Of a DNA stretch of 64,000 bases, positions 45,361-54,842 are shown one piece after another (position 1 is the stretch's first letter; each line of letters begins with the position of its first letter). Below the pieces are notes generated by a model. It made no database searches. It was not told the origin of the DNA and was given only the letters and a program-made list of their open reading frames with translations. A program made the translations under genes and the position numbers. This DNA is from Candidatus Obscuribacterales bacterium (GTDB lineage Bacteria > Cyanobacteriota > Vampirovibrionia > Obscuribacterales > Obscuribacteraceae), in contig CBDDIJ010000005.1 in assembly GCA_965228855.1 (NCBI GenBank), forward strand, positions 480,001 through 544,000. The letters run 5' to 3'.

Positions 45361-46761
45361 ATGCCGGAAGACGACAAGGACCAGAATTTGAACTCGGCCC
45401 TGAATTTGTGGCAAGAGGGAGTCGACAAGGCAGCGGGCGACCTCGAGAAGATTGTCAACAACTCAATCGATCAGCTCACACGCTACAGCGAGGAGCTTGA
45501 GAAATCGCTCGAATCACAACTCAAAAAAATCGCCAGTCAGACGAATTCAATGGTGGAAAACAACGTCGAAGAACTGGGGTCCAAGCGCGACGAACTCAAC
45601 GAGCGACTTGCCGAATTCGAGCGCAGCGAAGCAGACGAAATTTTGAAAACCGCCCAGGAGAGCCGCGAGCGCGTTTATCTTCTGGTAGATAAAACCAAGC
45701 AAGAACTAACAGCGAAGCTTTCAGAAACGCTCAAGAAACTGAATGGCCTGGCAGAAAATCCGCAGGGACGCTTCGCCAATTTTACGAACAAAAACCGCGA
45801 AGCAATGAGCGAATTCGCAGAAGCAGCGCGCGATAAGCTAGCCACGCAAAAGACCACTCTCGAGAGCGGTTTGACCAATAAATCCAAAGAACTCGACAGC
45901 CTGGCGGACGAATCGGTTGGTTTATCCAAGCAAAATATCGAGAAAAAACTGAGCGAGTATGAAGAAGGCTTCGACAAGAAAATCGCCGAGGTCCTCGTGC
46001 AACTCGATGAGATGCTGGCCATGACGACCAAAGCGACGGAAGAGTCAACCACCGAAGGTGCGACGGATCTCGAGGCGTGCCGGCTGGAGAATTCCGAATT
46101 CCTCGCGCACAAAGTTGACGAGTGGAAGACGAACATGGAAGTGCTGCAACACAGCTTTCAAGAAGACCTGGAGAGCATGCGCGAGGAAACACTCTCGAAC
46201 CATAGCCGCCGCCTGACTTACTCCGTCACGGAGGCAAAGTCGTCGATCAATCAAGTCGCGAACGACGCTCTCGCCAGAATTACCGGCAACCATCGCATGT
46301 ATTACAGTTCTTTGAAGCGGCTCGAGCGCAAATACGAGGAGCAAGTTGCTCGGCTGTTCAGCCGATTGGAAACTGTTATTTCCGAAGAACGTGATTTGGC
46401 CGGCGGCGGCAGCGCTCAATCGACTGAAGAGATAAAACAGAAACTCAAATCCCAATTAAAAATTCGTGGCAGCGAACTTGTTAAAACCTACAGACGGCAA
46501 GTCGATCAGATGGAAAATGATTTTGCCAGAGCTAGCACCACTTCATACGAGCGCATCGACAGCATCAGATTGCAGACGGTGGAGTCGCTGGAGAAGCAGG
46601 TTCGCATCATTAGAAGCGAATTAGACCGAATCGAAAAATCATTCAAAGTCGAACTTTCGCAACTGTCCATCGAGTTGCCGGAGATCGAAGAACGCGGTCG
46701 GGTAGCGGCTATGTCCGTCCAAGCCTACCTCGAATCATCTCTCACTTTGGATACAGACTAG
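45361..46761 (+). CDS. Hendecad (11-residue) repeat coiled-coil protein A, apolipoprotein-like
   Basis: AGGAG RBS, ATG 45361; LEKIVNNSIDQ|LTRYSEELEKS|LESQLKKIASQ|...; almost no Pro, no TM segment. Confidence 0.8.
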   Translation: MPEDDKDQNLNSALNLWQEGVDKAAGDLEKIVNNSIDQLTRYSEELEKSLESQLKKIASQTNSMVENNVEELGSKRDELNERLAEFERSEADEILKTAQESRERVYLLVDKTKQELTAKLSETLKKLNGLAENPQGRFANFTNKNREAMSEFAEAARDKLATQKTTLESGLTNKSKELDSLADESVGLSKQNIEKKLSEYEEGFDKKIAEVLVQLDEMLAMTTKATEESTTEGATDLEACRLENSEFLAHKVDEWKTNMEVLQHSFQEDLESMREETLSNHSRRLTYSVTEAKSSINQVANDALARITGNHRMYYSSLKRLERKYEEQVARLFSRLETVISEERDLAGGGSAQSTEEIKQKLKSQLKIRGSELVKTYRRQVDQMENDFARASTTSYERIDSIRLQTVESLEKQVRIIRSELDRIEKSFKVELSQLSIELPEIEERGRVAAMSVQAYLESSLTLDTD

Positions 46762-46833
46762 AACAATTTTGGAAACCGTTTCAACTGGCTCCTCACAAGA
46801 GCCGCACCGGATGTGGAATAAGGAGACGCTCGC

Positions 46834-48165
46834 ATGACCCTGGCAGGTAAGAAACTCCAAATTATCTATGATGGCGGGACAGAACAAATGTCCAGCATCG
46901 AAACCGACGCCATCGCAAAACTGACTGGCTCAGCCAATAAACATGCTTCGCAACAACGCAGTTCCGCGATGAATCACTCAAGCGTTGTTGAGTCGAAGTC
47001 AAAAGAGATTGAGGGCGAACTTCACGGGATGATGGATAAGTCCGTCAAGAAGCTCTCCAAGCTTAAGGAGCAAGAGGTCGAGAAGTGCAAGGAACATACT
47101 GAATCCTTGACTGAAGAGCTTCGCAGAATCGGCGAGTTGGTTCGGGAATCCGTTGATTCGATCAAAGCAAGTCTGGGAGATCGATTGAACGACGTTAAAC
47201 ACGAGTTGTCGAGCGAGTTTGATAAGACTTACGAGCAGAACGTTGCCGGTCTGATGGGCAGCAATTTCGAAGGCAGCAAAGAGATTCGCTCGCACGCGAC
47301 CGGGCTCACCAACAACCTCCAGCAGAAATTAGACCAGAGCGTCTGGGAGCAGAAGGGAAGCGAAAAACAAATTGTCGCGCAGCTGTACAAAAACTATATG
47401 CAGAAAGCAAGCGCGATCGAGACCCACTTCTCACAGATCATGCAAAAGCTGTCGGGCGAGTTTCAAACTCAATACAAAACGGTTGAAGAGGCCTCCTCGA
47501 AAGCGAAGGTCAACATCGGTGACGATATCGACAAATGTTTGACAGCGATCGAAGAAGCAAGCTCCGATGGTGAACGAGATATCAACGCATTCTTCGGAAA
47601 ACTCGTCAGCGAGCACGAATCGGAGCTGGAGAGTGAATTCGAGAAAGTCACAAGAGAGGTCACCCAGGCGAACTCAACTGCCACGACTGATTTGAAACAG
47701 AAGACGCAAGACTACAGTTCAAGCCTGTTAACAGCTGCGACTTCCGCGCTGGAGTCATTGAAAACCTCGTGCAACGACACCGTGAAAAACGCCGATACAA
47801 TGCACACAGATTTTCTCAATCGCATCGAAGAACGAGTCAAGGGCACGAAATCCACTCGCGACCAACTAGACGCAACAAAGACTGACACCATCAAAGAAAT
47901 TTGCGACGAGCTCGCGACCATGCGCAAAGGTTTCGAGGCTAACCTTGATAGACTCACTCGTGAAGCAGACGAGAGTGTTCAAACTGTGGCTGCCGAAGTC
48001 GAAAAGGAAATTAAACAGGCGCATACGCGATGCTTGAACAAACTGGCTGATGATGGGCAATCAGCAATAGACTCGATCAACAAAGAGACTACTAGAGTTC
48101 TCACGATGATTGAAGACCACAAGAGAGCAGCGCTTGATGAAATCACACAGGCCGCGCGCTCCTGA
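46834..48165 (+). CDS. Hendecad repeat coiled-coil protein B
   Basis: AAGGAG RBS; LHGMMDKSVKK|LSKLKEQEVEK|CKEHTESLTEE|LRRIGELVRES|...; proline-free. Confidence 0.8.
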   Translation: MTLAGKKLQIIYDGGTEQMSSIETDAIAKLTGSANKHASQQRSSAMNHSSVVESKSKEIEGELHGMMDKSVKKLSKLKEQEVEKCKEHTESLTEELRRIGELVRESVDSIKASLGDRLNDVKHELSSEFDKTYEQNVAGLMGSNFEGSKEIRSHATGLTNNLQQKLDQSVWEQKGSEKQIVAQLYKNYMQKASAIETHFSQIMQKLSGEFQTQYKTVEEASSKAKVNIGDDIDKCLTAIEEASSDGERDINAFFGKLVSEHESELESEFEKVTREVTQANSTATTDLKQKTQDYSSSLLTAATSALESLKTSCNDTVKNADTMHTDFLNRIEERVKGTKSTRDQLDATKTDTIKEICDELATMRKGFEANLDRLTREADESVQTVAAEVEKEIKQAHTRCLNKLADDGQSAIDSINKETTRVLTMIEDHKRAALDEITQAARS

Positions 48166-48224
48166 ACACATATGTAAGAACTCCTTGGTTACAAATTTAA
48201 GAACGAAAAGAACGGGACGATAAT

Positions 48225-51200
48225 ATGCATTCAATGCTTCGCCAAAACCAGGTTAGACAACAGGATGTGAAACCATACATCCGGACCTTCACCCGCAATA
48301 ATCCGATGGATTTGAACGAGTGGGCGAAGGAAGAAGGCGGGCTGTTCGAGCCTGGCACGCTGATTTTCTTGCTGGAACCGGCCAAACGACCACCAGGCAT
48401 GTCGTCATTTGCACGCGGTCAAGCTCCGGGTGCCGGCGGGGCGGCCGATGCGGCGCAGGATGGCTACCGAGTAAAGGATATGTGCGTCGTCGTCGATAAA
48501 ATCGACGGGAAGTGCTGGGTGTTAGCTATATCACCAAGCGCGTTTGAATTGCGCTTCATAGACACGTTGTTCCGTGAGAAAACGCAGAAAGCGTTCCTCG
48601 AAGGTCTGGATTTTCAGTATCTGGCTTGTGCACCACGGCCGGTGCTCAACGACCAGCAGCAAAAAGAACTCAGGCAGCTCTCGACCTTGTACAGTAAGTC
48701 CGGATCGAGACGCACTATTGCTCAAGATGGAGTCGGTCCGGAAGAACCGGCCAGGGCGATGCTCAGTTTCCTGGGCGCCGACTTATCCTCTGTCGGCAAA
48801 CAGATGATTGAACTTGGTTTAATTTGTAACCTGATCTTCTCCCCGGAAGGTGTGCAGGAGAACAAGGCACAAAGTCAGGTGAAATCGTGTTTTTCACCGA
48901 TTCTAGCAACGGACAAATTGAAAAAGTTGCAGCAATCAACGCCCGCGGCGCCAGCTCCTACCCCTGCCACGGAGAGCAGCGATGAGCAGGTATCTCTGCT
49001 GTCGCCAACATATTTAGAAAACGAGGCGCGCGAAGCCGCAGACTTCCTTGCCTACAATCAGCCAGAGCCAGGAGCGGCTCCAGCTAGCGCAGGGGTCTGG
49101 ACTTCCACTCCAGCCGCGCCATCTAGCACCACCCCTGGTGCCGATGAGTTCAAGGCGTTGACGCCACCATCATTTGATCTCGGTGGCTTTCCATCCGGCG
49201 GTCCAGGCGGAGGTCAGCCCGGAATGATGTCTCCGGACATGCCGGCTATATTGACCGGTGAGCATGCCGTCATCAGTGTAGATCAGAAGTTGAACACCGA
49301 AGACGCAAACGGTTCGAAAGTTCCGGCGTTGCCTGCATGGTACATGACTACTCATAACATCAATGAGATGAATGAAGTGGCGCTGAGACGTGCAGCGGAG
49401 AGTCCGACGGAGATGCCGGCTGGTCTGGACAAACTCGAGTCTGAGTTGTCTTACGACGCCCTTCCTGTCGTGGATGCTCGCTTTCGTCCAGGAGCAGAAC
49501 CGCCAACAGCGCAACCCTACCCAGGACCGCCGGATACGCTGGTTCCCGGCGCTCAGGCCCAGATGGAACAGGACGCTTCCGGAGCGTGGGCACAACCTCC
49601 GCAGGCAGCGGCACTCGGACAGGCCAAAGATTTCAACGACTCCATATTTGAAGGTACTGGGGGACGAGGTTCTTTAGAAACCAATCCCGATGCGGTCCTG
49701 GAGCAGTCAAAGAAAACGCGAGGTCAAGCCGGCGACTGGCAGCAAGTCGATAGTGGTTCGAGCGGTTCCGCCTTTGTCTCGCCGGGAAGCACAGCTCGTT
49801 CTCAACCGGAAATTCCCGATCCAAGTAATCTATTTGATAGGCTCGGCGGAACGCAAGCACCGGAAGAGGCACCACCTGCGGCACCATCATGGGCAGACGG
49901 CGAGCGCGGCCGCCCCACTAATCTCAAAGACATGCTCACGGCTGATAGCGCTGTTTTCACAACAGATAGCGGCAAACTCAAGGAAATCACTCCGGCTCCG
50001 CAGCCTGAAAACCCGTCTCTTGAAATGCCACCGCCGGCGGTGGTTGAAACGCCCCACCTTGAGGAGCCCGCGGCCACGGACAGCACCACCGAAGCGCCTT
50101 CACCATGGATGAACTTAGCCAAAACGGAGTCAGACTCAGCGGTCGAACCCGCGAGTCCGTGGGACTCACCTAAAGACCCAGCTGGACAATCGTCGTCGAG
50201 CTGGGATGCGTTCAATCAGCAAAACCCGATAGAGCAGCTAGACATTCTGGAAGCTCCGGAGGCGCCCACACCGCCTTCGGATCACGTGAACGAACTTGCC
50301 GCAGCGATGCGTGGCTTGATGACTTCTCCTGACGCGATCGAGCCTGGTACGGCAGTGGATCAAACTGCTGCCGGCGGGGCAGCTGGCGCGGGAGAGTCGC
50401 TACCGGAAGCCACTGGTTCTGAGGACTTGTTCGGCGACGTCATGGATAAAGTCATGGACCTGGCTGAAACGGCTCAACCCGTTGAAGCCGAATCGACCGA
50501 AGCACAACCGAGTGCGGAAGTAACGGACTCCGAATTTGACATGTTCGAAGACGGCAGAGACCAGACAATGGATCTCGATTCAGCCCTTCTGCAGCGCTTG
50601 AGCAGCGGACCCGCGACACTTCACACCACCCAACCTGCAGAGACGGAGGAAGCACCAGCAGCGCCACCAGTACCGTCGGTGCCCACCTTCTCGACTGACA
50701 CTTCACTGGTATCGTCAGCGATGGCTGCCCACGCACAGGCGATGGTAGATCCGGAAGCGCAGGCTGAACCAGCCGACGAGACGCAGCTCTCGGCGTCTGA
50801 CGTGACCGCTACTACAGAACCGACAGCATCCGAGTCTGTAGCATCGGAAGTTTCTGAGCCGGAACCGAAACCGGCTCCAGCTCCGACCCCATTGAGACCC
50901 GGTCGTCGTCGCACAGCGGAACTGCGAGCAGGAATCAAGCCGCTAGAGCTTCCAGCAGATGCACTGCTCGAGCCAGCCGCGGCAGAGCCGGAGGCACCCG
51001 CCGCACCGGTCACACCTGAGGCTGAGGCTCCCGCAGAGCCCGAGTCAATTTCCCCGCAACAGGACGTTCCAGAGACCACAAACGTCACTCCTGATGTCAC
51101 ACAGGGAGAGGATGAGCCATCCTCATCATTATTGGATGCAGCGCCACTCGACATATCCAGGCGCGGTTCGATGGAGCAGATAGAGGCTCCGACGCCTCCA

Positions 51201-52886
51201 GCGGAGGAATTAGTGGAACCTGAAGCAGCGGTCGAGGAACCATCTGCCTCAGAGTCGACGCCACCGGCACCGGTATCAGAAGTTTCAGAACCCGCGGCTC
51301 CGGAACCAGCGATCGCTGAAGCGGTTACAACGACGGTTCACACCGACTCATCAACGTCTACACCGGCACTCACGACTTCACAGGAAACCGAGCTTGCGGA
51401 TCTGGGAGACGGTTTCGACGATGAAGAGGATGAACAGGATACCAGGAAGCCCGCACCTTACGGACAAGAATCCAAGCTCACCGCATCCGGTGTCATGCGG
51501 TCGCATCAGCCCACCAACGATCCAAAATTAGTCATCTCAGAGTCGACACGCTTCATGGCGAGACTGAATCAACGTCTTTCAGAAGCGGACAAAAAGCTTT
51601 CGAGTCGATGTGAACAATCGAGAGATCGCTTACTCCGAGAACTAGACGCCCTTGTAGAGGAAGCCCATAAGGTCGAACGCCAGAATGAACTGAGCACCGG
51701 TGCTCTCACTGAGCAGCTCATGACCCATCTGGAGACGGTTTCAAGCGAAGTGAAAGCCCGCATTGAAAAGACCTCCCAGCAAAGTCGCAAGGAACTGAGC
51801 GAATTGATTCAGATGGCCGAAAACACGGTCACCAAGATGCATACCGATTTGAAGAAAGAGCTGGATGGTGCCGAAAGCACATTCCAAGCCGACTCCGATG
51901 CACTCGCAGAAGCAACGCGTTCGGAACTCAACCAACATGCGCAAGAACGCATCAACGACTTCAATCAAAAGCTGGAAGAGATTTCGAATGCACTAGAGTC
52001 GGTGTACAAGCACCACATCAATGTTTTGATGACCCGCTTTGAGAAATTCCAGACACGATTGAATGAAGAGGTAGATGCAATTATCAGCGCACTCGACCGC
52101 AACGTCGGCTCCATGACCGTCGAAATCGATGGTTCCTGGGATCGCGCCTCAGAGAAATTGATGGCGAGCCAGACCGAATTCGGAAATAGCGTAAATTACC
52201 TCGTTCACAGTTGCCGTGCCGAGTTGAAGCAGGTGCATCTGGAGTCTTACGCGAAGAGGGTTTTGCCGCAACTTCTCGAAAACAAAGACATCTTCCGCAC
52301 GATGCTGTTGGACATGAAGCGCAACTTCGAAGAGCAGTCAGCCAACCTGAGAAAGACTCAGCTTTCCAGCCTGGCGGATAGCATCACAACTTCGAAGACC
52401 GAGTTAGACAACCTCACCAAGGAGTGTCTCAACACAATCGAGTCGGTTGGCAAAGGTCAGCAGTTCGGGCTAGAGGAGTTGTTTAACAGCACAAACGCTC
52501 GACTTGAAGAGATCATATCGACAGTCGAAACCCGCCTGAAGTCTGCAAAACAAGAGATCACCGACAACGATGAAGCCTGCATGAAGACATCGGAAGCGTC
52601 GAGAGTGGAAGATGAGCCTGCGTTCTCACGCGAAAAGCAAGCTGCCATCGCCGCTCTCAACGAATGCAGAACCAAGGCGGACAACGCACTCGAAACTCAT
52701 ATCAGCTCAAGCTGCCTGGATCTGGAGCATCTCAGCGAAGAGATGCAGGAAGATTTGGCGAAACAGCGCCAAGACTGGACAGCGCAGGTTCGCACAACAG
52801 CTGACGAGAATATCAATAAGGTGAAACAGGCTATCCAGGACGCCTTCCAGGCGATCGACTCGGCAAAGGAAAAGCACATGGATTGA
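48225..52886 (+). CDS. 1553-aa protein: N-terminal globular domain, long acidic Pro/Ala/Glu-rich linker, C-terminal hendecad rod
   Basis: Long uninterrupted ORF; residues ~240-1100 low complexity; LNQRLSEADKK|LSSRCEQSRDR|LLRELDALVEE|... to the C-terminus. Confidence 0.82.
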   Translation: MHSMLRQNQVRQQDVKPYIRTFTRNNPMDLNEWAKEEGGLFEPGTLIFLLEPAKRPPGMSSFARGQAPGAGGAADAAQDGYRVKDMCVVVDKIDGKCWVLAISPSAFELRFIDTLFREKTQKAFLEGLDFQYLACAPRPVLNDQQQKELRQLSTLYSKSGSRRTIAQDGVGPEEPARAMLSFLGADLSSVGKQMIELGLICNLIFSPEGVQENKAQSQVKSCFSPILATDKLKKLQQSTPAAPAPTPATESSDEQVSLLSPTYLENEAREAADFLAYNQPEPGAAPASAGVWTSTPAAPSSTTPGADEFKALTPPSFDLGGFPSGGPGGGQPGMMSPDMPAILTGEHAVISVDQKLNTEDANGSKVPALPAWYMTTHNINEMNEVALRRAAESPTEMPAGLDKLESELSYDALPVVDARFRPGAEPPTAQPYPGPPDTLVPGAQAQMEQDASGAWAQPPQAAALGQAKDFNDSIFEGTGGRGSLETNPDAVLEQSKKTRGQAGDWQQVDSGSSGSAFVSPGSTARSQPEIPDPSNLFDRLGGTQAPEEAPPAAPSWADGERGRPTNLKDMLTADSAVFTTDSGKLKEITPAPQPENPSLEMPPPAVVETPHLEEPAATDSTTEAPSPWMNLAKTESDSAVEPASPWDSPKDPAGQSSSSWDAFNQQNPIEQLDILEAPEAPTPPSDHVNELAAAMRGLMTSPDAIEPGTAVDQTAAGGAAGAGESLPEATGSEDLFGDVMDKVMDLAETAQPVEAESTEAQPSAEVTDSEFDMFEDGRDQTMDLDSALLQRLSSGPATLHTTQPAETEEAPAAPPVPSVPTFSTDTSLVSSAMAAHAQAMVDPEAQAEPADETQLSASDVTATTEPTASESVASEVSEPEPKPAPAPTPLRPGRRRTAELRAGIKPLELPADALLEPAAAEPEAPAAPVTPEAEAPAEPESISPQQDVPETTNVTPDVTQGEDEPSSSLLDAAPLDISRRGSMEQIEAPTPPAEELVEPEAAVEEPSASESTPPAPVSEVSEPAAPEPAIAEAVTTTVHTDSSTSTPALTTSQETELADLGDGFDDEEDEQDTRKPAPYGQESKLTASGVMRSHQPTNDPKLVISESTRFMARLNQRLSEADKKLSSRCEQSRDRLLRELDALVEEAHKVERQNELSTGALTEQLMTHLETVSSEVKARIEKTSQQSRKELSELIQMAENTVTKMHTDLKKELDGAESTFQADSDALAEATRSELNQHAQERINDFNQKLEEISNALESVYKHHINVLMTRFEKFQTRLNEEVDAIISALDRNVGSMTVEIDGSWDRASEKLMASQTEFGNSVNYLVHSCRAELKQVHLESYAKRVLPQLLENKDIFRTMLLDMKRNFEEQSANLRKTQLSSLADSITTSKTELDNLTKECLNTIESVGKGQQFGLEELFNSTNARLEEIISTVETRLKSAKQEITDNDEACMKTSEASRVEDEPAFSREKQAAIAALNECRTKADNALETHISSSCLDLEHLSEEMQEDLAKQRQDWTAQVRTTADENINKVKQAIQDAFQAIDSAKEKHMD

Positions 52887-53065: not shown

Positions 53066-53794
53066 TTGGAGGTATTGTTTTTCCGGATCCAATTTCCCGC
53101 CGAATTTAGTAGAAGGATTCAGCTCCTGAGTAATTATCCTGACCATCAAGTGCCTCCGGCTCTAGCGGAATTCGGTAGAGACTGGCCTAGCCTGGATTAC
53201 GACGAGGACCTCAACGAGATCTTCCTCTATCACGGTACAAACTGCTATCGGCGCTGGGAGATTGCACGAAGCGGAAGTCTCGAGCCGGGTCGCAACCTCT
53301 ACAGTTTCTTTTCTACGAACGCAATCGACGCATACACCTATGCCCGTGCCGCGTGCATGCGCGACATCGGTCCGAATACCTTCAATTCGCTGATATGCGA
53401 ACCGGTTGTTCTCAAAATCAAATTCACTGGTCGGACCTGGCTTCAGGTCGACTTTTTGAAGTTCAAAACCGGTGAAGACACAGGTTTACCATCCTTCGAA
53501 GCGGCAGTGCTGGGTCCGATTTCGTGCACCAACATCGTAGACGTTCTCCATTGCACTCACGGCAGACGGCTCGGTGCAGGAGACACAAACAGAACATTTG
53601 AAGACGGCAAATTCCTGACCAGCATTCGTCACCTCAAAGAGAAACTAACGAAAAACCGCATGGATACATGGGTTCTGAAAAAACTTGGCTTTATGCGACA
53701 AACTGTCGAAGTTCGGCTTTCTGGCGGGGAAGTTCCTGAATTGACATCGGATGACCACTTGCGGAAATTAAGACAGAGTCAGGCTCGCGCCTGA
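53066..53794 (+). CDS. Putative ADP-ribosyltransferase-fold protein
   Basis: LYHGT, YSFFSTNAIDAYTYA, PVVLKI, FEAAVLGPI motifs in ART strand order; start uncertain. Confidence 0.55.
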   Translation: MEVLFFRIQFPAEFSRRIQLLSNYPDHQVPPALAEFGRDWPSLDYDEDLNEIFLYHGTNCYRRWEIARSGSLEPGRNLYSFFSTNAIDAYTYARAACMRDIGPNTFNSLICEPVVLKIKFTGRTWLQVDFLKFKTGEDTGLPSFEAAVLGPISCTNIVDVLHCTHGRRLGAGDTNRTFEDGKFLTSIRHLKEKLTKNRMDTWVLKKLGFMRQTVEVRLSGGEVPELTSDDHLRKLRQSQARA

Positions 53795-53879: not shown

Positions 53880-54842
53880 ATGAGACCCGCCCAAACGATT
53901 TCCAGAATTTTCTTTTCGCTCAGCCTACTCTGTGCGTTATCGTTCAACTCTTATCCTGTGCTGGCGCAGTCTATGAGCGAAGCCGAGATGCAGCAGATGC
54001 TTGATGAGATGAACACTTGGAAGAAACCGAATGGAGGCCAGCCGCAACAGTATGGAAGTGGTGGCATGCAGCAACCGTATGGTGGCATGCAACCGCAATA
54101 CGGTGGGATGCAACAGATGGGATATCCCCAACAAATGCCCATGCAGCAGATGCCTCCCATGGGAATGCAGCAACAAATGCCCGTGCAACAGATGCAACAG
54201 ATGCAACCGATGAACATGCAGCAGCAAATGCCTATGCAACAAATGCAACCAATGGGCATGCAGCAGCAGATGCCTATGCAGCAAATGCAACCGATGAACA
54301 TGCAGCCGATGAACATGCAGCAAGGTATGCCTCAGATGCCACCACTATCAGGAATGCAAGCGACACCGCTAAATGGTGGTGTTTCACGCGCAATGCCGAT
54401 CGGTAACGCAGGTGTCGGGCCCAAGTTCAATCTGTCGAATCTGTTCAACCAACGCATCGGCGGTGGTGGCGGTCCCATGGGTGGATTAGGAGGTATTTTT
54501 AGAACAATGGCAGCGATGAACAGCGGCGGCGGCGGCAATTCCGCAAGCATGTCCTCCGCGAAGGACGCTATTGAATATGAACTCAGTCACGCAAAGTCAA
54601 TGGCCGCGCAAGCCGTTGCATATTCTGATGACGCTCGCTCCGCGAGCGAGCGTTCAGCGAAGCAATCCGCCGCATCCGAATCGCGCTATTATGCCAACGA
54701 AGCGAGAGCAGCTGCGGACAGAGCGCAATCAAGAGTATCTGAATACCCAGACGGGCAGGGCATGGCGAGCGCCGCAATGGCCGAAGCAGATCGCGCCTAC
54801 TCGGCAGCACAATACGCAGCCGACGCCGCGAGCGGCTGGTAG
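53880..54842 (+). CDS. Secreted protein with Gln/Met/Pro-rich repeats and an Ala-rich helical C-terminus
   Basis: GGAG RBS, signal peptide (PVLA), MQQQMPMQQMQPM repeats. Confidence 0.75.
   Translation: MRPAQTISRIFFSLSLLCALSFNSYPVLAQSMSEAEMQQMLDEMNTWKKPNGGQPQQYGSGGMQQPYGGMQPQYGGMQQMGYPQQMPMQQMPPMGMQQQMPVQQMQQMQPMNMQQQMPMQQMQPMGMQQQMPMQQMQPMNMQPMNMQQGMPQMPPLSGMQATPLNGGVSRAMPIGNAGVGPKFNLSNLFNQRIGGGGGPMGGLGGIFRTMAAMNSGGGGNSASMSSAKDAIEYELSHAKSMAAQAVAYSDDARSASERSAKQSAASESRYYANEARAAADRAQSRVSEYPDGQGMASAAMAEADRAYSAAQYAADAASGW
54031..54360 (+). repeat. Coding low-complexity tandem repeat (ATGCAGCAG/ATGCAACC units)
   Basis: Imperfect tandem units encoding MQQQMP(M/V)QQMQPM(N/G). Confidence 0.8.

Follow-up and report, generated by a model that had tools for sequence, protein, structure and literature searches.

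What might three adjacent genes, each encoding a hendecad rod of nearly the same length, build together? The question is raised by a 64,000-nucleotide (nt) stretch from a Candidatus Obscuribacterales bacterium (GenBank assembly GCA_965228855.1, contig CBDDIJ010000005.1, positions 480,001 to 544,000), hereafter the window. Genes A (45361-46761, 466 amino acids, aa), B (46834-48165, 443 aa) and C (48225-52886, 1553 aa) all lie on its + strand, spaced by 72 nt (A-B) and 59 nt (B-C). Each was found in one copy in its own 8.2-Mb genome, and a promoter and terminator scan gave chance-level results only. A first-pass annotation had proposed a hetero-oligomeric filament, ring or membrane-shaping scaffold; the three co-oriented genes, their gaps and the peptides quoted there are all present in the open reading frame (ORF) translations. 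We consider it probable, if only modestly so, that A, B and the C-terminal rod of C would form a parallel, in-register hetero-oligomeric rod, in its simplest form 1:1:1, which carries a tethered pseudo-enzyme and serves as a cytoplasmic scaffold or spacer.

The hydrophobic residues of A, B and C 1100-1553 gave Fourier peaks at 3.67, 3.67 and 3.68 residues, respectively. Power at the peak was 39.6, 48.4 and 40.6, compared with 10.7, 9.7 and 11.0 for the 99th percentile of 100 shuffles each. The 11-residue periodicity noticed in the first-pass annotation was thus recovered as a 3.67-residue period, with a power of 40-48 vs ~11 for shuffled sequences. At a period of 3.5, power was below 1 in all three rods, and the Fourier analysis showed no 3.67-residue peak in the N-terminal domain (N-domain) plus linker of C. 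The highest 19-residue Kyte-Doolittle means were 0.71 (A), 0.46 (B) and 1.23 (C), and therefore none of the three proteins has a transmembrane (TM) segment, as had been stated for the rods.

B is a proline-free rod with a single hendecad phase over ~430 residues. With a helix rise of 1.5 A per residue, this corresponds to a length of ~64 nm. The C-terminal tail of B is variable among relatives. Two conserved prolines are found in the A rod and two in the C rod (~1100-1553; 51522-52886, + strand), whose hendecad phase shifts once, at the near-invariant P1348. A is marked by conserved P134 and G233, an indel-tolerant loop at ~345-357 and a conserved C-terminal region of ~110 aa (G370, P440, G446). 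The near-equal rod lengths pointed out by the first-pass annotation are maintained among relatives, with cores almost free of indels: net indels of zero were counted for B in 67 of 76 cores and for C in 55 of 68, and A varied chiefly in loop 345-357. One paralog clade (five loci, one event) is without eight residues at A350-357, B322-329 and C1444-1451. Its B gap lies about one hendecad off the covariation register described below, a difference that alignment error at such identity would cover.

The hydrophobic stripe of the rods occupies five of the 11 hendecad positions, with Leu making up 36-57% and Ala 3-6% of the residues at the central one. Hendecad dimers are described as needing a small central core residue (Ala), with a clash or a higher oligomer as the consequence otherwise (PMC9858780). 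The large, Leu-rich and Ala-poor central residue therefore suggests three or more chains. Net charge medians of the rods ranged from -16 to -20. A monomer model of A consisted of long helices, with a predicted template modelling score (pTM) of 0.22, and carries no fold information.

Pairwise BLASTP among the three rods gave E values of at least 0.19, in line with the earlier remark that they are not obviously similar to each other. Profile comparison with hhalign reached E values of 2e-12 to 1e-10, and reversed controls reached 3e-8 to 3e-11. Because the reversed controls score comparably, a common origin (paralogy) of the rods is not established; A-C is slightly above its controls. A search for natural fusions, that is for longer proteins matching the B profile, returned two matches, both generic. 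These only longer matches are presumably GPR-like.

The three genes are kept together. We examined 80 loci, 20 picked by a match to A and 60 by a match to the N-domain of C, some of which end at contig edges. A, B and C were adjacent and in the same order in all 80 and in nine of nine further loci, so that the gene order holds in 89/89 loci. The divergent B of locus L058 was detected only with a deeper profile. Median intergenic gaps were 21 and 15 nt (77 loci), and stop/start overlaps were frequent. At three loci (L084, L104, L106) gene C is split into two or more pieces, probably by assembly frameshifts.

The triplet is near-core and order-specific in the Obscuribacterales, uncultured non-photosynthetic relatives of cyanobacteria. 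The N-domain profile of C was found in 94 of 107 Obscuribacterales genomes (36 of the 39 good-quality ones), and in a class-wide sample in 28/32 genomes inside the order and 0/118 in other orders. Over 201 genomes of the phylum, the A profile had seven weak partial matches beyond its own gene. Against 1.84 billion representatives, a HMMER search with the N-domain returned 113 proteins, with the domain N-terminal in nearly all.

Duplication and disappearance affect the triplet as a unit. Genome G274 has four whole copies, and three of these share 12-17% identity with the proteins of the window. In genera g17, g131 and g141, A, B and C were all undetected in five of five genomes tested, with only weak partial matches. 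The triplet is missing from genome G314 (97% complete), where gene D, the gene found downstream of the triplet in the window, lies only a 49-nt gap away from lpdA, and from genome G023 (98%), where an unrelated gene sits between lpdA and gene D. These last two absences count as one event, because G023 and G314 are sisters in the LpdA tree. Since the triplet is absent as a whole in some lineages, the module is dispensable there. The expectation of a conserved triplet thus stood as regards a near-core unit of the order; its dispensability in at least one clade had been missed.

Covariation between the chains carries the proposed register. Inter-chain mutual information was calculated on gap-free columns and summed in bands of 11 diagonals. 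Parallel peaks were found at -19 (A-B), +1 (A-C) and +18 (B-C) for 59 loci, with seven divergent paralogs dropped, and at -15, +2 and +18 for all 66 complete loci; the three offsets close a triangle within the band width. Band scores were 10.0, 13.6 and 14.5, exceeding in each case the maximum of 40 tree-based simulations with independent sites (6.2, 9.1 and 6.5). Among the top 60 pairs, 3 (A-B), 6 (A-C) and 10 (B-C) fell on the register, with 2 expected. This gives statistical support to a parallel register in which A(i) would lie beside B(i-19) and C(1093+i).

Several observations weigh against an in-register hetero-oligomer. The covariation comes from 59 loci, with an effective number of sequences (Neff) of ~32. 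Three random re-pairings of loci still peaked at 4.3-6.7 near the same register, and part of the signal is therefore due to matched conservation profiles. For B-C, a side peak of 9.4 lay in the antiparallel orientation, and in two of three thirds the highest A-B peak lay away from the register. The A, B and C trees have 36-38 of 39 supported splits in common, a congruence that adds no weight because linkage alone explains it. Neither the neighbouring genes nor those that co-occur point to a particular cellular process. A crude flank-charge model gave -6.1 for AAA and -4.4 for BBB vs -3.9 for the best hetero arrangement.

This slight preference for AAA and BBB would suit separate homo-oligomeric rods, or pairs, which co-assemble laterally into a filament or mesh in the manner of intermediate filaments, the register then reflecting side-by-side packing. 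ZicK/ZacK, a co-dependent cyanobacterial heteropolymer, is a precedent (10.1101/553073). However, CCC was repulsive in the same charge model (+7.3), and the three pairwise registers were all parallel and unstaggered and peaked at core-aligned offsets, which makes such homo-oligomeric rods unlikely in our view. For the parallel hetero-oligomeric rod, and for the hetero-oligomer of the first-pass annotation, gene order, duplication and loss of the whole triplet, fixed lengths, the register and the large-residue core all speak indirectly in favour; the crude charge model does not favour hetero-assembly.

C adds two further parts to its rod, a globular N-domain (~1-226; 48225-48902, + strand) and an acidic, Pro/Ala-rich linker (~236-1099; 48930-51521, + strand). 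Both the globular domain and the ~860-aa acidic linker had been described from the sequence, and composition and an N-domain model agree with this. In the window, linker residues 236-1099 are 13.2% Pro, 17.3% D+E and 4.7% K+R, with a net charge of -110. Among 68 relatives, the linker ranged from 64 to 1181 aa, with acidic residues exceeding basic ones in 65, and only short motifs were common, in at most 7 of 31 representatives. Given this range of lengths and the few common motifs, the linker is a tether rather than a ruler.

The first-pass annotation had overlooked the predicted fold of the N-domain, a degenerate permuted papain-like NlpC/P60 fold. The model was of good quality (predicted local distance difference test, pLDDT, 89.6; pTM 0.88). 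In a wide structural search (48,161 chains), the first match was BcPPNE (3kw0; Z 8.7, root-mean-square deviation (rmsd) 3.9, 152 aligned residues) and the second YiiX (2if6; Z 8.1, rmsd 3.6, 133 aligned), followed at lower scores by TseH (Z 5.5) and then RID, PLAAT4 and a deSUMOylase. The best viral match was OPG091 (probability 0.77, E 0.09), which we take to be vaccinia G6R. The likeness to permuted NlpC/P60 proteins (PF05708/YiiX) extends to the predicted fold, the order of elements and a G-x-hydrophobic first strand. We therefore predict, with moderate strength, a permuted papain-like NlpC/P60 fold. Against this assignment, Z scores of 8-9 barely exceed what unrelated models reach in the same structural search, Foldseek against the PDB gave nothing at E <= 0.001, and profile-profile support was limited to the first strand and its GDL motif (E 0.0016). 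Neither a PDB sequence search nor an Atlas search matched the N-domain, and the PF05708 profile matched 0/62 N-domains at E <= 1 and nothing in genome G000.

Permuted papain-like enzymes are defined by a His...Cys dyad and a Tyr (PMC3142127). The catalytic sites were mapped by hand, via the order of secondary-structure elements on cyanobacterial PF05708 proteins rather than by superposition, a further point of caution. With the same element order, D85 of the window C falls at the His position, R162 at the Tyr and P175 at the Cys. The G160-x-R162-R163 motif (48702-48713, + strand) maps to the former active-site Tyr loop. G160 and R162 were conserved in 62 of 62 N-domains and P175 in 59, whereas no alignment column held His in more than 27/62 or Cys in more than 39/62, and no His or Cys column is conserved at the mapped sites. 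Unlike the permuted NlpC/P60 enzymes, the N-domain has no conserved His, Cys or Tyr at these sites and is fused to a linker and a rod; it is thus likely to be a pseudo-enzyme that lacks the catalytic dyad. The YiiX structure contains a fatty acid, and the fold family has lipid pockets (PMC3142127). An Arg-lined pocket in the N-domain might provide a binding site for anionic ligands, lipid head groups for instance.

Lipid also enters through the family searches. In a Pfam and NCBIfam scan, every match of A, B and C was below its curated cut-off. The best Pfam match of all three rods was Apolipoprotein (PF01442), with E values of 2.6e-10 (A), 5.3e-6 (B) and 1.5e-7 (C), and the B profile matched apoA-IV at E 9e-14. 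The rods share the 11/3 amphipathic helix with exchangeable apolipoproteins. K/R is modestly present at both flanks of the stripe, and D/E is skewed to one flank. Together with the lipid pockets of the N-domain fold family, these matches and the slight K/R enrichment would fit an apolipoprotein-like coat or belt, in which 11/3 helices lie on a membrane, disc or inclusion and the N-domain handles lipid. However, at 27-41 bits the scores fall well short of the 90-bit Pfam cut-off, and the apolipoprotein-type matches are generic, because reversed rod profiles match each other equally well. Exchangeable apolipoproteins have 22-mer repeats punctuated by proline and a class A charge pattern. Such punctuation is absent here, B being proline-free, and there was no consistent lag-22 excess over lag 11. 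The net charge is negative, a class I polyhydroxyalkanoate (PHA) synthase was not found in five of five genomes tested, and a coat has no need for three length-fixed chains in a shared register. We regard a lipid coat as fairly unlikely. WS/DGAT was found in 0/107 genomes, in a search in which the controls were silent too.

No confident match to a known family emerged, as the first-pass annotation had anticipated; the tape-measure, ZorA and apolipoprotein matches are weak and generic. No SMC ATPase head or hinge and no signal domain of methyl-accepting chemotaxis proteins was matched in A, B or C by Pfam or NCBIfam. Tape-measure matches reached only E 1e-6, and there are no phage neighbours. 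Such matches, and the occurrence of permuted NlpC/P60 folds in effectors (TseH and RID being among the structural matches), might suggest an exported toxin-delivery rod of the LXG or Lap kind, or domesticated phage tape-measure or ejection proteins. We consider this extremely unlikely, in view of the lack of a conserved dyad and of a polymorphic tip, the mostly single copy and the housekeeping neighbours; an EssC-like ATPase was found in one of five genomes, and not in G000.

The main copy of the triplet lies behind lipA-pdhABC-lpdA (13-16 of 20 loci), or behind tig-clpPX-lon in other lineages. A functional link to pyruvate dehydrogenase was rejected, because clpX-lon precedes the triplet elsewhere. 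Paralog triplets of genus g13 have other neighbours: one (L058:514-5601) adjoins cheB-cheW-cheW-cheA-Hpt, and three (L050:13597-15487, L110:4358-6284 and L049:13225-14763) are beside PAS-receiver-Hpt phosphorelay genes. Given this placement, the rods could serve chemosensory or phosphorelay systems as an anchor or as a stalk that transmits signals. However, these copies are related paralogs of one genus, and the main copy has the neighbours named above. CheW occurred in 66 of 107 genomes and was not found in the triplet-bearing G011, G013, G020 and G024, and FlhA exceeded its cut-off in 0/107. A signalling stalk is therefore very unlikely. PilT, MreB, EssC and PHA synthase (five genomes each) do not track the triplet, nor do CheW and FlhA.

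Downstream of the triplet, gene D (53066-53794, + strand) encodes a conserved 242-aa protein with a YHGT...FST motif resembling ADP-ribosyltransferase/Tpt1 folds and a weak RNA 2'-phosphotransferase match (E 0.014). It was considered as a fourth part and rejected, because the g13 copies have no gene D next to them, and G023 and G314 retain the gene although they have no triplet. Gene D, which stays behind lpdA in those two genomes, is thus not part of the module. A further gene (53880-54842, + strand) is predicted to encode a secreted protein that contains a long repeat rich in Gln, Met and Pro (QQMPMQQM-like); it has no Pfam match, and homologues occur at 5 of 20 loci. Upstream of another triplet, three tandem paralogous secreted proteins of ~480 aa carry a CCYFAAKDKDINQP motif (L113:7008-11572). 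In an Obscuribacterales genome, an open frame of 2958 aa matches EssC-like FtsK ATPases several times (G024:C16:81980-90388). In two ~4.2-Mb genomes of the same phylum (G214, G234), at least three adjacent helical genes of ~300 aa (L041:337-3843 and L042) include two with sub-cut-off apolipoprotein-type matches, possibly a second multi-gene hendecad module; similar cyanobacterial clusters of ~300 aa were seen in the Atlas at low score. Frames of ~1900-2500 aa with weak A-profile matches were found in small genomes of the class (L043-L046; family f6, another order).

Taken as a parallel hetero-oligomeric rod, the module might work as follows. A, B and C would be made together from one gene cluster, and the three rods would zip up in parallel, their ends almost level, into a coiled coil of ~65 nm that is straight or has a slight right-handed twist. 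From one end the acidic, disordered linker of C would emerge, dangling the predicted inactive NlpC/P60-fold domain, which may bind membrane lipid or a lipidated partner. The whole unit would space or scaffold something in the cytoplasm. We infer the 1:1:1 stoichiometry, the ligand of the N-domain and the scaffold role from the features described above. Hendecad coils have received little attention, and each of the bacterial examples considered here (Scy/FilP, GPR, ZorA tail) is made of a single type of chain. A natural rod of three chains whose register is predicted would be a test of partner choice in 11-residue coils, and the triplet is a near-core, order-specific marker of a lineage that is widespread and uncultured and has seen hardly any cell biology. 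With the N-domain, a lipid-enzyme fold gains a tethered branch that is probably non-catalytic. No published description of the A-B-C operon surfaced in a literature search whose scope excluded supplements. A 2023 survey of hendecad families may list these proteins.

In laminin and fibrinogen, a parallel rod is built from three distinct chains, and one chain bears a long flexible arm. These proteins are eukaryotic, secreted, heptad-based and disulfide-linked, and the comparison is an analogy only. Pressed further, it would make the triplet a counterpart of these proteins: an obligate 1:1:1 heterotrimer that, as a molecular ruler with a fixed length of 65 nm, sets the distance from a lipid-sensing pseudo-enzyme to a second site, within an order-specific cytoskeletal or membrane-spacing scaffold. 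This extended version is tentative and on balance doubtful. Closer in phylogeny, ZicK and ZacK of Anabaena (Alr4504 and Alr4505) are coiled-coil-rich, belong to the same phylum, have partner genes kept together and play a nucleotide-independent structural role; they have consecutive locus tags and are described as a mutually dependent heteropolymer (10.1101/553073). They have two components instead of three, and the hendecad period, the acidic linker and the predicted pseudo-enzyme domain set the triplet apart. No homology is indicated, as a phylum sample gave weak generic matches only, and the likeness checked here is that of gene arrangement. GPR of Agrobacterium, encoded by a single gene of 2115 aa and reported to form a hexameric polar ring (PMC8262873), has similarly long, continuous apolipoprotein-like helices; the presumed GPR-like matches carry TM-like segments, whereas three soluble chains without TM segments are found here. 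Streptomyces Scy and FilP are also bacterial scaffolds with long hendecad coiled coils (PMC9858780), but they have Ala-core dimers and a DivIVA motif, in contrast to the Leu/Ile core and the lack of a DivIVA match here. The ZorA tail, a ~70-nm bundle modelled as right-handed and of conserved length, is described as a homopentamer on a MotA-like TM motor with ZorB (10.1101/2023.12.18.572097). Here there is neither a TM domain nor a ZorB neighbour, and the ZorA profile matches of the rods were weak (E 1e-6 to 7e-9). In the way it would work, the triplet resembles the ZicK/ZacK, GPR, Scy and ZorA-tail scaffolds most; it lacks a defining feature of each of GPR, Scy and ZorA.

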